Shown here: piece by piece, positions 1,252 through 31,327 of the stretch | How the letters are laid out: every line of letters begins with the position of its first letter | Numbering within the stretch: the first letter of the stretch is position 1 | UHGV virus genome: UHGV-1351569 | DNA length: 64,000 nt | Direction: 5' to 3' (one strand) | DNA from: a virus | The notes under the pieces: generated by a model | What the model was told of the DNA's origin: nothing | What the model saw: only the letters and a program-made list of their open reading frames with translations | Database searches by the model: none | Made by a program: the position numbers and the translations under genes

Positions 1252-2953
<1,702 letters not shown>

Positions 2954-2966
2954 TTAAAAATCCTTT

Positions 2967-2982
2967 GGGGCCTTGCGGCCCC
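2967..2982 (-). terminator. GC hairpin GGGGCC-ttgc-GGCCCC between wac stop and gene 13 start
   Basis: perfect 6-bp GC stem with tetraloop in the 32-bp intergenic gap; weak U tract, so may be an RNA-stabilising hairpin rather than a full terminator. Confidence 0.45.
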
Positions 2983-2985
2983 ATG

Positions 2986-4443
2986 TTATGCTGGTGATAA
3001 AAAGGTAGAAAGTAGTACCCATTCGCCGTCTTTACGAACGTAAGCTTGGCCATCTTTTGGAGCTTCAGGGATATAACCTGCTTCCTGTAAAGTCTGAACA
3101 TCCCCCTGTAATGAAGATACATTACTTTTAATACTACGCATTTCTTGATTAATAGAAGAAATGTTAGTTTCATTAGCTTTTATTGAATTAGTTAATCCGC
3201 GCTCTTCTACTGTTGAACCATTTGGATTTGTGCCGCTTACTAGTTTATTTAGTGCAACAACTTGGCCTTTAATTCCAGTAGTGTTATTACCAATTTCAAC
3301 TTGTAAGTTTTGAACATCATTGTTCAGTCTATTAACTGAAGTTTCAACAGTTGAAACCCTATTTAAAAGAGACCCAGGAGGAGAAGGCTGACCTCCACTA
3401 GAATCAGTTCCAACGATTTGGTTTAGCCATGAAACGTTTGCTCGTAGTCCAGATGAAGTGTTTTCACCAACAATTCCATTTAAAAACTCAATTGATGTTG
3501 TATTATCTTTAATTTGACCTTTAATACTAGAAGGAATATCATCTGAGCCAATTGACGTTTCAATGACAGTCAATCGTTGTTTAATACCTCCGCTTTTATT
3601 TAGTTCATCATTTAAAGCTGAAATTTCTTGTGTATTAGTGTTAACATCTGTGATTATTGAAGTATTTCCTGGATATCCAATAGAAGTTTTGATAGATTTA
3701 ATTTCGGAACTAAGATTAATCTGCGATTGATCTAAATTATGAACACGTGAATATATGCTTTCACTGAATGAAGATGGTCTTTGTCCAAGTTCTTGTCTAA
3801 GATTTCCGACTTCAATTGTCAGTGAACCTACATCAGATTCAATAAATTTTTCTTCCAAATCACTTAGACGTATTCCTTGGGAAGTTATAGCATCTGTATT
3901 ATTAATGATGCGGTGCTTCATACCCGTGCTGCTATTTCCTACAACAGGAAGACCATTAATGTCTTGCCCAGCATATTGTCCTAATTCCCTTTTAATCCAT
4001 AACAAATCATTTCTAATCGTTCTATAAACTGAATTTGCTTGCGAATTAAATGGACCAATATCAGAAAGAATATTATCAACCGTAGTATTTGTACCATTTA
4101 ATATATCAGTATGTTCATTCGTGAGTGTCTTTAAATTTGATATATCATTTTTATTAACACTGATCTGTGATAGCGCTTCTATATCTCCTGATACATCTAA
4201 AATGCCTTGAATGGTTTTAATATCTTCCTGAGATGTTTCAATGGCAGTTTTAAGAATTCCTACATTTTCGTCGAGAACCTCGACATTTTTAAACACAGAA
4301 ACAGTTGGTCTATTCATTGACCCATCGTTTCCATACTTAGTACTAGCTCCTAATATTTCTTCACCATTTTTAATCCATGAAATACGTTCCTGACCTTCGC
4401 CAGGAACGCTATCAACAAAAGGTAACTCTTTTAATTCAATCAT
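2986..4443 (-). CDS. wac: fibritin (whisker antigen control protein)
   Basis: 485-aa ORF ending ...[30 protein letters not shown] (fibritin foldon); repetitive coiled-coil body; between 12 and 13. Confidence 0.9.
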
Positions 4444-22429: not shown

Positions 22430-22738
22430 ATGAAAACTTACCAAGAATTTATCAATGAAGCAGCTGCGCCAAAGACATTTGTTATTAATACTCAAGCGAG
22501 TCTTGATGACGAGTACGCAGAGGCAATTTTGAAGTCACTTGCTAAGAACGGTGTTGAAGTGTCTGCATCGGACTTTAAGAAAGGGGCTTCCGAGATGTTT
22601 ATTTCTATAACTAAAGGATCTAAAGCTAAAATTAAATCATCATTCGGAGTTGCTCGTGCCGATCAAATCGACAACCATGACTTTAAACAAACTGGTGCTA
22701 AACGACAGAACACAATTGCATCACGTGGAATAAAATAG
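22430..22738 (+). CDS. internal-protein-like protein with capsid targeting sequence
   Basis: begins MKTYQEFINEA (consensus capsid-targeting sequence of T4 internal proteins, prohead protease site after ...xE). Confidence 0.6.
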   Translation: MKTYQEFINEAAAPKTFVINTQASLDDEYAEAILKSLAKNGVEVSASDFKKGASEMFISITKGSKAKIKSSFGVARADQIDNHDFKQTGAKRQNTIASRGIK

Positions 22739-24516: not shown

Positions 24517-24526
24517 ATTTAATTTA

Positions 24527-24603
24527 CTCCGTGTAGCTCAGTTTGGTAGAGCACCTCACTTGTAATGAGGATGTCGGCGGTTCGATTCCGTCAATCAGCA
24601 CCA
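24527..24603 (+). tRNA. tRNA-like gene with Thr anticodon UGU but non-complementary acceptor stem (probable hybrid / pseudo-tRNA)
   Basis: D, anticodon and T arms fold normally; 5' acceptor strand CTCCGTG cannot pair with 3' strand AATCAGC (4 of 7 mismatches). Confidence 0.55.
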
Positions 24604-24604
24604 A

Positions 24605-25463: not shown

Positions 25464-25780
25464 AACAAGAAACCGGGTCGCTACCGGTAAGTCGTCGGAC
25501 TGATGTTCCCTGTTTAAGGACTGGCATTAATAAATCTTTATGTTTTGTTGATGCCCTCTTACATCACAGCAGAAACGGCGCACCGAATTATCGATTCGAG
25601 GAAATATTTTTGCCGTAAGCCGAGTAGCGTTTTTGACGGAACGTTCGGATATGGTCGAGATATGGCCTTTTAAAAATATTGAGTAGCGTCAACTGCTTAA
25701 TAACCGGGTTCGAATCCCGGCGTTTCGTACAAACACTTGCCTTAGCAGGTGGAACCCCGACAAGGTTGCCGCAAGGCTTA
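25464..25780 (+). ncRNA. small stable RNA region (rnaC/rnaD-like)
   Basis: ORF-free 0.3 kb directly after tRNA-Arg with tRNA-like T-arm CCGGG-TTCGAAT-CCCGG; T4 encodes two stable RNAs at this position. Confidence 0.4.
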
Positions 25781-25807
25781 GCCCCAACCGAAAGGTTGGG
25801 GCTTTTT
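25781..25807 (+). terminator. rho-independent terminator (GCCCCAACC-gaaa-GGTTGGGGC + T5)
   Basis: 9-bp stem, GAAA loop, T-run. Confidence 0.7.
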
Positions 25808-25809
25808 AG

Positions 25810-25817
25810 TATAAATA
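25810..25817 (+). promoter_or_regulatory. late promoter TATAAATA
   Basis: TATAAATA about 40 nt upstream of the 25858 ORF. Confidence 0.5.
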
Positions 25818-25857
25818 TAGTAGTATATTAAATCCACGAATTAAAACAGGAAATAAG

Positions 25858-26331
25858 ATGAAATCATATGCTCAATTTTTAAATGAAGCGGTGATAAATG
25901 AAGCATCTAGCACTGAAATTCAAGCTGTCGCGAAAGCAGCCATTGCAGCGGGTAAATATTCCTATAAAGATGCTTCTGACGAATCACGATTCCAATTTGC
26001 TCGTGATATGAAAGCCGAAGGATTTACAGGGAATGCAGTTAGTATGGCTTGGAAAAGTTTAGTTGCTACTGGAGCTGCTTTTGCAAAGGCTTCAGGTAAA
26101 CCTGCTCCTAAAGCAGATCCTAAAGTCACACAAGAGAAAAATATTGTTAAAGGAATTATCTCCAAATATGAAGCTATCCTTAAAGAGCTTTTAGTAATCA
26201 AAACTGAAGGCCAAAAACTGGCTCGTGCTTATAGTTTCAAAGATAACCCACATGCTCACTCTCTTGAGTATGTTGAAGACATCCAAAAAATTATTAAAGA
26301 CCGCATTTGGTCTGCTAAACAAATCAAATAA
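25858..26331 (+). CDS. hypothetical protein with capsid-targeting-like N-terminus MKSYAQFLNEA
   Basis: 157-aa Ala/Lys-rich protein; N-terminus resembles internal-protein targeting sequence; late promoter upstream. Confidence 0.5.
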   Translation: MKSYAQFLNEAVINEASSTEIQAVAKAAIAAGKYSYKDASDESRFQFARDMKAEGFTGNAVSMAWKSLVATGAAFAKASGKPAPKADPKVTQEKNIVKGIISKYEAILKELLVIKTEGQKLARAYSFKDNPHAHSLEYVEDIQKIIKDRIWSAKQIK

Positions 26332-26339
26332 CATTCTTA

Positions 26340-26366
26340 GCCCTAGCCGAAAGGTTGGGGCTTTTT
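26340..26366 (+). terminator. rho-independent terminator, near-identical copy of the 25781 hairpin
   Basis: GCCCTAGCC-gaaa-GGTTGGGGC + T5; a second GGCC hairpin follows. Confidence 0.65.
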
Positions 26367-26498
26367 GGTATCTAGGCCTTTCCGGGCCTCTCTAGGCATC
26401 ATTTAGTTTATACCCTTTATAATTATTATCCTACCTTTTAATTTCCTCTCCCTGCCCTAGAATTCCCTAAAACTTTTTAAAAAATTTTTCACAAAACT

Positions 26499-26528
26499 GT
26501 TTACATCCCTATTCTTCCATGGTACTAT
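26499..26528 (+). promoter_or_regulatory. early promoter with A/T-rich upstream element
   Basis: TTTTTCACAAAACTGTTTACA ... GGTACTAT. Confidence 0.6.
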
Positions 26529-26571
26529 ACAACTATCAACTACTGATACAGAAAACAACTTGGAGAACGAA

Positions 26572-26890: not shown

Positions 26891-27289
26891 ATGAATATTG
26901 AAGATAAAGAAATGCGAGAGTTATATAATTCATTAACACCTGAACAACAAAAAGCTGCCAAAGAATTAGAGAAAGCTCTTAGTTTAAGCTTGACAAAAAC
27001 TGATTGGGCCGCCGTGTATGAAGAAAAAATGAGGTCGGAAAATGAAGCTGCCGAGAGAAATGAATGGATTGTGGATACCAAGATTGGAGCTGATGGTTGT
27101 TCTGTTGAGGTGTCAGCTGTAGTTAAAGGTACTCATGGCGAAAAATCATGGGGTTGGCATAATGAGGCAAACAAATATATTGTTCTCTCAACATCAAAAA
27201 CTTATGGTCAAAAGGTTCCTGTATCCAAAGCTATTATTAAGCAAGCTCAATGGGAAGCCAATGAAATCTGTCTCGCAAAAATGAAATAA
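26891..27289 (+). CDS. hypothetical protein
   Basis: 132-aa ORF, RBS GAGGAG. Confidence 0.5.
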   Translation: MNIEDKEMRELYNSLTPEQQKAAKELEKALSLSLTKTDWAAVYEEKMRSENEAAERNEWIVDTKIGADGCSVEVSAVVKGTHGEKSWGWHNEANKYIVLSTSKTYGQKVPVSKAIIKQAQWEANEICLAKMK

Positions 27290-30853: not shown

Positions 30854-31327
30854 ATGAAAACATATCAAGAATTTATTACTGAAGCAGCTATTAATTCTCA
30901 AATTATTGCTGAATCTTTTACTGATCTTTTGAAATTTAAAAAAGGTCAAAAAATCACTGCTGTATTGGATGATGGTACAGAAGTTGAGATGGATGTACAG
31001 GGATATAATTATGCAGTAGATGGAAAACTGTATAATAAATCTCATGCTAAATTTGATTCATTTGACGACTTTGTTAATACAGTTGAAGATGAAAAAACTC
31101 GTCGATCCATTGCAACTGGTGATGCTAAGGTTCTTATGGCACATGGTCATGAACGCATTCGCGCTAAACAGAATAAAATGGGTGAAGATAATTTTGCATT
31201 AGTTGGTTATCAATCTGGTAAACAAACTTATGGCTATCAACGTACTGCTACAGTGTATAATAAAAATGGTAAAATCGCTTTCGTGAATAGCAAAGGCTCT
31301 ATTCAGTACGTCAAATCATTCAAATAA
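30854..31327 (+). CDS. internal-protein-like protein with capsid targeting sequence (ipIII position)
   Basis: 157 aa, begins MKTYQEFITEAA; adjacent to e where T4 has ipIII. Confidence 0.6.
   Translation: MKTYQEFITEAAINSQIIAESFTDLLKFKKGQKITAVLDDGTEVEMDVQGYNYAVDGKLYNKSHAKFDSFDDFVNTVEDEKTRRSIATGDAKVLMAHGHERIRAKQNKMGEDNFALVGYQSGKQTYGYQRTATVYNKNGKIAFVNSKGSIQYVKSFK

Follow-up and report, generated by a model that had tools for sequence, protein, structure and literature searches.

A terminator-bounded one-gene cassette between rnaC and e.8 of T-even phages, encoding a candidate internal protein

Introduction

The internal proteins (Ips) of T-even phages, T4 IPI, IPII and IPIII among them, make up an injected anti-restriction arsenal in which one GmrSD type IV restriction enzyme is blocked by Ip1, another by Ip2 and a third by Ip3 (PMC12373910). 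They are small, basic, dispensable and patchily distributed, start with a leader of ~10 amino acids ending in L/I-x-E, and are described as unrelated to one another beyond this leader (PMC12373910, PMC3012670); Ip4–Ip10 are attributed to Repoila et al. 1994, as cited in PMC3012670 and PMC12373910. The genome regions that hold Ip genes are polymorphic and flanked by repeated regulatory sequences; they are referred to as “two Ip loci” (PMC12373910). Repeated regulatory elements also act as a gene-shuffling engine in T4-type genomes (PMC2839356): in PeSL/PmSL cassettes (Arbiol 2010, PMC2839356; Comeau 2014, PMC4122927), an open reading frame (ORF) lies between stem-loop direct repeats, sister genomes without the ORF retain one chimeric element in its place, and cassettes occur in combination, with recombination between the flanking regulatory repeats and excised mini-circles documented (PMC2839356; also PMC4122927 for PeSL-mediated shuffling). 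Here we describe a related unit in a 64,000-nucleotide stretch (hereafter, the window) of the virus genome UHGV-1351569. The unit holds one ORF (ORF-A) between two near-identical terminators (T1 and T2), located between rnaC and e.8, and we consider it probable that it is a one-gene cassette exchanged at these repeats and coding for a packaged, injected Ip-like protein.

The unit shares with the Ips the leader, the small and basic product, the patchy distribution and the repeat-bounded polymorphic site. It differs from them in its position, since classical Ip genes are found at 57B-tRNA.4 or e-denV, and in its upstream region, where a terminator and NATAAATA replace the early promoter/inverted-repeat element of the Ip genes; unlike the Ips, ORF-A has never been named and is absent from T2, T4 and T6. 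With PeSL/PmSL cassettes it has in common the stem-loop direct repeats, the single chimeric element at empty sites and the combination of cassettes, but its repeats are intrinsic terminators, the left one joined to a late-type rather than an early or middle promoter, and the PeSL-like early promoter near the unit is found only downstream, where it serves e.8. Morons of lambdoid phages are promoter–ORF–terminator units between conserved genes. The unit likewise combines its own promoter, ORF and terminator between genes that are adjacent in relatives; unlike a moron, it would be expressed late in lytic growth rather than from a prophage, is native in composition, and its product is probably found in the virion. 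Finally, the T4 ADP-ribosyltransferase Alt is packaged in the head, injected and processed by gp21 at I/L-T-E (PMC5694885), a route that is predicted for ORF-A as well, although Alt, as a large enzyme, contains a recognisable domain, while the small ORF-A product has none. As principles, leaders that target proteins to the capsid and recombination between repeated regulatory elements are both established; this locus is a concrete case of them that changes no concept, while the ORF-A family, its partner ORF-B and the rnaC–e.8 site appear to be undescribed.

A polymorphic cassette between two terminator repeats

The window belongs to an RB32/RB33-like Tequatrovirus, with ~97% identity to Kha5h, RB32 and RB33 over the unit region, and its + strand is the reverse of the T4 map convention. 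In this orientation, the gene order is tRNA cluster, segB, tRNA-Arg, rnaD, rnaC, T1, the unit and e.8 (Table 1). A first-pass annotation of the window had reported two 30-nt repeats at 25780-25809 and 26339-26368, matching at 27 of 30 positions and flanking a single ORF that starts MKSYAQFLNEA. These coordinates and the match are correct, and one long ORF of 157 aa lies between the repeats. The repeat is longer than first noted, however, at 36 nt with 33 of 36 positions identical and a period of 559 bp; the identity includes an 18-nt core (GAAAGGTTGGGGCTTTTT) and extends into flanks outside the stem (CTT..., ...GTAT). A 28-mer search allowing ≤3 mismatches retrieved just these two sites in the window, and none in 100 dinucleotide-preserving shuffles. 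Both copies fold into a 10-bp G+C-rich stem that is capped by a GAAA loop and continues into U5, at −20.6 kcal/mol (z = −3.8) for the first copy and −18.5 kcal/mol (z = −3.5) for the second, both were called in a terminator scan of the window, and both thus show the G+C-rich hairpin and subsequent U-run on the transcribed strand that define an intrinsic terminator. Given the local gene order, T1 is the terminator closing the tRNA/rnaC operon, while T2 is the cassette gene's own terminator.

Table 1 Features of the rnaC–e.8 region (window coordinates)
Feature	Position	Strand	Basis or remark
rnaC (species 1 RNA), last gene of the tRNA operon	25593..25731	+	approximate, transferred from RB33/T4 annotation
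T1, left repeat, intrinsic terminator of the tRNA/rnaC operon	25777..25812	+	hairpin 25780-25803, GAAA loop, U-run 25804-25808
TATAAATA, T4 late-promoter-type motif abutting the T1 U-run	25810..25817	+	
Shine-Dalgarno-like AGGA	25848..25851	+	6 nt before ATG, from sequence
ORF-A, candidate internal (capsid-targeted, injected) protein, 157 aa	25858..26331	+	leader, isoelectric point, dN/dS
Putative ORF-A leader, aa 1-10 or 1-15	25858-25902	+	LNE/A and INE/A motifs (slash after the Glu)
T2, right repeat, the cassette's own intrinsic terminator	26336..26371	+	hairpin 26339-26362, two G.U pairs
Early-type promoter TTTACA-17-TACTAT, PeSL-like region upstream of e.8 (right conserved flank)	26500..26528	+	

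Comparison across T-even genomes revealed that the unit is polymorphic, with four states of the site: empty, A, B and A+B. In T4, both flanks align with the window nearly base for base around a 559-bp indel, leaving a single terminator and no ORF, and the same arrangement is found in T2 and T6. The single terminator of these three phages has the sequence and place of T1, but is in each case an exact chimera of a T1-type 5′ flank and stem with the T2-type tail TTTTTGGTATCTAGG; RB3 also has one such chimeric copy (T1-type left, T2-type tail). Replacement of the ORF by one chimeric flanking element, as in PeSL cassettes, is thus seen in T4, T2, T6 and RB3, while the other hallmark of these cassettes, composite repeats of a stem-loop and an early promoter, is not seen: the stem-loop repeats are present, but the left one is fused to TATAAATA. 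ORF-A is also carried by RB32, RB33, RB51 and AR1. RB27 and the Mosigvirus Shf125875 have diverged ORF-A alleles, which are likewise enclosed by a pair of terminator copies. RB14 instead encodes ORF-B (187 aa) at this site, which starts MKTYAEFLTEA and is unrelated to ORF-A, and pSs-1 has both genes in tandem as T1-A-T2-B-T3. The B-only state corresponds to A+B minus exactly the T1–T2 interval and the A-only state to A+B minus the interval from GGGCTTTTT of T2 to GGGCTTTTT of T3. Every junction between site states falls inside a terminator hairpin or U-run.

To gauge the frequency of these states, we used junction-specific searches of 50,697 phage records, in which counts are approximate and nearby pieces are merged. 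The rnaC-3′/T1 segment was matched in ~736 records, the T1-to-A junction in ~453, ORF-B in ~165, the A-T2-B tandem junction in ~128 and the A-only right junction in ~278. This implies ~37 B-only records and, as an upper bound only, ~246 of the 736 records with neither ORF. Overall, ORF-A is present in ~60% and ORF-B in ~20% of the ~740 sequenced relatives. ORF-B has a late-type box of its own, AATAAATA or GATAAATA, at −42 to −46 (pSs-1, L013, 2525-2650; RB14, L006, 1100-1216). Its terminator T3 has a different stem (CCCTATC-TAAAT-GATAGGG) and the same GGGCTTTTTGGTATCTAGG tail; with the tail alone in common, ~10–19 nt of homology are left for exchange between T2 and T3.

The window and RB27 also differ by a replacement of the allele. 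Their flanks are 95–100% identical and their ORFs only 52–85%, with breakpoints at T1 and ~35 nt before T2 and a synonymous divergence (dS) of 1.13 between the two ORF-A copies; this drop in identity between T1 and the vicinity of T2 identifies RB27 as an allele replacement bounded by the repeats. The comparisons therefore demonstrate, at the level of sequence, the anatomy of the cassette, its polymorphism and its breakpoints, and bear out the earlier proposal that the unit is gained or lost at its repeats. The opposite case, in which the repeats would be ordinary terminators at many unrelated sites around a universally conserved gene, does not apply: two copies are present in the window, and the gene is patchy. 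As far as aligned genomes can tell, the site states, breakpoints and divergent alleles together bear the marks of homologous or microhomology-mediated recombination acting on the terminator repeats.

An old resident of the site

In a Mosigvirus, in the Klebsiella phage KP01 and in a metagenomic T4-like contig, the ORF-A homolog comes directly after the tRNA and small-RNA genes and is preceded by a terminator to which NATAAATA is fused; the KP01 junction (GGGGCTTTTTAGTATAAATA) is identical to that of the window. Since synteny is kept across genera, ORF-A would most simply be an old resident of the site that was lost repeatedly, including in T2, T4 and T6, rather than a recent arrival. Alternatively, the unit may be a recent moron-like insertion into a single terminator, with T4 as the ancestral state. 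The classical T-evens T2, T4 and T6 all lack the unit, its promoter–ORF–terminator layout is that of a moron, and, following the PeSL model (PMC2839356), T1 could take up a circle that carries a single terminator. Nevertheless, we regard a recent insertion as unlikely, because Mosigvirus, a Klebsiella Jiaodavirus-type phage and the metagenomic contig share the same position after the tRNA/rnaC genes and the same terminator–late-promoter junction, G+C content and third-position G+C (GC3) are typical of the genome, and dS exceeds 1 within the ORF-A family. Insertion and loss would moreover use one mechanism, so that this alternative concerns the history of the unit and not its function. Under the old-resident scenario, the same recombination would also allow ORF-A to be re-acquired.

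ORF-A is a conserved gene of a small T4-like family

Low dN/dS ratios (0.06–0.13 in unsaturated comparisons), which denote purifying selection, and the synteny kept after the tRNA cluster in Mosigvirus, KP01 and the metagenomic contig indicate that ORF-A is a real gene. Its product is small and basic, as are the Ips, with an isoelectric point (pI) of 9.46 compared to 8.93–9.54 for T4 IPI–III. ORF-A is a member of PHROG 2280 (4.7e-60), a family of unknown function; Pfam yielded a sub-threshold chance match only, and PADLOC and PDB sequence profiles yielded no match. The family is small, with 14 clusters in a search of 5.8 billion sequences and 13 in an exhaustive profile hidden Markov model search of 1.84 billion representatives, and all clusters with a checkable source or genomic context come from T4-like phages. 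Database names are “hypothetical” throughout, except for one Klebsiella homolog named “internal head protein”. The AlphaFold model is all-alpha (mean confidence score, pLDDT, 77), with a predicted helical bundle (residues 18–75), a Lys/Pro/Ala linker and a long helical hairpin (88–154); as only the family itself was matched in structure searches, no function was drawn from this fold. RB32ORF132c, RB14ORF136 and similar ORF names are not mentioned in the papers searched, a set that did not include Repoila et al. 1994, and the ORF-A and ORF-B sequences are absent from the supplements of the accessory-gene screen of Silas et al.

Two other origins considered for ORF-A were rejected, namely a foreign one on the grounds of composition (G+C of 0.37 versus 0.35 for the window, GC3 typical of the genome) and descent as a paralog of a second 157-aa leader-bearing ORF of the window, at 30854, to which it has no similarity. 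Public ORF-A alleles are often frameshifted or truncated (cases occur among P0006, P0008, P0009, P0013, P0014, P0073 and P0078). Two of them are chimeric: in P0014, the final 30 residues of ORF-A follow an unrelated N-terminus, and in P0013 the N-domain of ORF-A is continued by an unrelated C-terminus. In addition, the family has two alternative C-terminal modules (...DRIWSAKQIK and ...VGDVGRHYKKL); these truncations, chimeras and alternative ends suggest decay and domain shuffling. Kha5h contains ORF-A in its DNA (97% identical) without an annotation.

An internal-protein-like leader behind a late-type promoter motif

The first-pass annotation had called the gene capsid-targeting-like, a description that the leader supports. 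The N-terminus of ORF-A (MKSYAQFLNEA) resembles those of T4 IPII and IPIII (MKTYQEFIAEA, 7 of 11 positions matching), T2 Ip7 (MKTFKEFINEA), T6 Ip6 (MKTYQEFIAET) and ORF-B of RB14 (MKTYAEFLTEA), and ends in putative gp21-type L/I-x-E sites, LNE10/A followed by a second motif, INE15/A. The prohead protease gp21 cuts after Glu in I/L-x-E, e.g., at ITE-6 and LTE-619 of Alt (PMC5694885), and the predicted mature ORF-A would comprise 142–147 aa, with a mass of ~15.5–16 kDa and a pI of 9.5–9.6. The leader is present in all family members found, remoter versions being MKFKEFLAE/AS, MLKFNEFLAE/G and MINFSDFLNE/G, and Glu15 of ORF-A is invariant in the family alignment. A relaxed leader pattern matched 3 of 417 M-starts in the window (ORFs ≥60 aa, six frames), i.e., ORF-A and two ORFs at known Ip loci. 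BLASTP similarity of ORF-A to Ip7 and ORF-B is limited to residues 1–26, and none was detected to the 30854 ORF. The two other leader-bearing ORFs (22430-22738 and 30854-31327) are at the classical Ip loci behind early-type promoters. One is an ortholog of Ip7 (97 of 102 residues identical to T2 Ip7); the other, located right after gene e where T4 has ipIII, starts MKTYQEFITEA.

The late-promoter motif is placed as previously described, with 40 nt from its end to the ATG. Its weight derives from position and conservation at homologous loci rather than from octamer frequency: each of the six ORF-A lineages considered (the window, RB27, pSs-1, Shf125875, KP01 and the metagenomic contig L010) has NATAAATA 36–48 nt ahead of the start codon, as do both ORF-B lineages at −36 to −48. 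No early-type promoter was detected within 130 nt upstream of ORF-A or ORF-B in these six plus two lineages, the early promoter following the right repeat only. Conservation across genera hence supports a putative late promoter. The accompanying argument, that late expression fits a packaged protein, is reasonable but does not correspond to the canonical Ip pattern, as classical Ip genes are of the early type. The rnaC–e.8 site is accordingly regulated, to judge from its promoter motifs, differently from the two recognised Ip loci.

Several observations weigh against the proposed exchange of an Ip-like gene at terminator repeats. The ORF-A leader differs from MKTYQEFIAEA at 4 of 11 positions, and the locus, from the rnaC terminator to e.8, is outside the two recognised Ip loci. 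The TATAAATA octamer itself occurs at chance level for AT-rich DNA (14 copies in the window versus 11.0 ± 3.4 expected), and the classical Ip genes checked (T4 ipI/II/III; T2 Ip5 and Ip7; T6 Ip5 and Ip6; Ip7 and the 30854 ORF of the window) all lie behind a PeSL-type element, in which an inverted repeat overlaps an early-type promoter, and lack NATAAATA within 130 nt upstream. Searches of the ORF-A model against PDB and BFVD returned no structural relatives outside its own family, and the literature search returned no virion proteomics, N-terminal processing or transcript data on ORF-A; a paper on a Yersinia Tequatrovirus reports no mass spectrometry. Lastly, the two terminators flanking the homologous gene of KP01 are dissimilar to each other, and the near-identity of T1 and T2 is therefore a trait of Tequatrovirus and Mosigvirus, not of the gene family.

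In a second alternative, ORF-A is a genuine accessory protein made late but left out of the virion, and its Ip-like N-terminus is inherited or recombinational baggage, for instance an exchanged translation-initiation region. The unusual locus and promoter type, the imperfect leader and the lack of proteomic evidence in the literature would all agree with it; virion mass spectrometry supplements for Klebsiella Jiaodavirus contained no matching peptides in the part examined, which is uninformative. Against this, homologs from different genera retain the amino acids of the leader, including the invariant Glu of L/I-x-E, despite nucleotide divergence, ORF-B combines the same leader with an otherwise unrelated protein at the same site, the leader pattern is otherwise confined in the window to the two known Ip loci, and ORF-A has the size and charge of an Ip. 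We hence consider an unpackaged ORF-A quite improbable, and an unnamed internal, i.e., injected, protein its most likely identity as predicted from the leader.

Terminator repeats as the substrate of exchange

An alignment of fourteen terminator copies from T-even loci provides further information on how the repeats evolve. The differences among these copies are all A<->G or C->T substitutions within the 5′ arm of the hairpin stem, such that A-U or G.U pairing is preserved in the + strand RNA only, and Shf125875 has an unusual TT variant common to both of its copies. This pattern, along with the shared TT, indicates that T1/T2-type repeats are functional + strand terminators that exchange sequence. 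That T1 and T2 are alike only through selection as efficient terminators, with indels arising by illegitimate or other events for which the repeats are no substrate, is very hard to credit: while strong terminators commonly have G+C-rich stems, GNRA loops and U-runs, and both the dissimilar KP01 pair and the different stem of T3 in RB14 would fit, this leaves aside the 33/36 identity that includes non-stem flanks in two copies only per 64 kb, the exact chimeras of T4, T2 and T6, the TT in both Shf125875 copies, the breaks of the RB27 allele swap at the repeats, and a B-only state equal to A+B minus the exact T1–T2 interval.

Proposed route and significance

In the route that we propose, a late promoter, ribosome-binding site, ORF-A and intrinsic terminator placed right after the tRNA/rnaC terminator would form the unit, and ORF-A would be transcribed late from TATAAATA by the gp55/gp33/gp45-modified RNA polymerase. 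The leader MKSYAQFLNE would act as a capsid targeting sequence, docking ORF-A on the gp22 scaffolding core, and gp21 would then remove 10–15 residues by cutting after Glu10 and/or Glu15. The resulting basic protein of ~16 kDa would remain beside the DNA inside the head and be injected along with it into the next host, where it may disarm a specific host defence; by analogy with known Ips, this would most plausibly, if speculatively, be a GmrSD-type type IV restriction enzyme variant. Such a role in countering host defence could explain why ORF-A is dispensable, patchy and fast-swapping. Loss, gain and replacement would proceed via recombination between the terminator repeats, parallel to PeSL shuffling.

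More tentatively, rnaC–e.8 may possibly be a third Ip hotspot, with at least two unnamed leader-bearing families behind late promoters (ORF-A, PHROG 2280; ORF-B, RB14ORF136) that encode injected inhibitors of defences outside the range of Ip1–3, e.g., further GmrSD variants. If so, the vacant site in T2, T4 and T6 would be the reason why the hotspot escaped notice. In any case, relatives of these three laboratory T-evens carry two uncharacterised leader-bearing genes at a site where T2, T4 and T6 have none, and both genes may code for new injected anti-defence proteins. From the presence/absence, allele-swap and tandem variants that occur in nature, the recombination substrate can be narrowed to within ~20 nt, and a 559-bp unit between 36-nt repeats offers a simple system for measuring terminator-mediated cassette exchange.

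Neighbouring features of the tRNA–e.8 region

RB33 and T4 annotations place rnaD and rnaC between tRNA-Arg and the T1 terminator, and the rnaC stretch of the window is 96.7% identical to RB33. In some phages, the place that rnaD holds in the window and in T4, from tRNA-Arg to rnaC, is taken by an RB69ORF150c-like gene of ~115 aa (L001, Kha5h, 2564-3056; L015, T2, 3010-3360; L005, Shf125875, 1294-1638), and this represents a separate presence/absence polymorphism of ~365 bp. Further upstream, the tRNA cluster of the window has a 164-bp deletion relative to RB33 (at 24517-24604), by which tRNA-Ser is lost and tRNA-Pro, up to and including its D-arm, now runs directly into the 3′ portion of tRNA-Thr. 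The product is a Pro/Thr hybrid with a TGT anticodon, for which Rfam gave a partial tRNA match (24534-24592) and ARAGORN no call. Judging by the homologous D-arm sequences, this hybrid looks like the outcome of unequal recombination between them.

On the other side of the unit, the right flank from T2 to e.8 matches T4 nearly base for base. Search matches suggest ~6–8 copies per T-even genome of this stretch (26369-26560), which includes TTTACA-17-TACTAT, one of them near T4 nrdC.10 with an annotated terminator and −35/−10 signals; this suggests that the stretch may behave like a PeSL element. Beyond e.8, the ORF at 26891-27289 (132 aa) is unrelated to RB27 e.7 and to the pSs-1 gene at the same position, and identity drops abruptly at ~26904, indicating a second variable cassette directly downstream of e.8.

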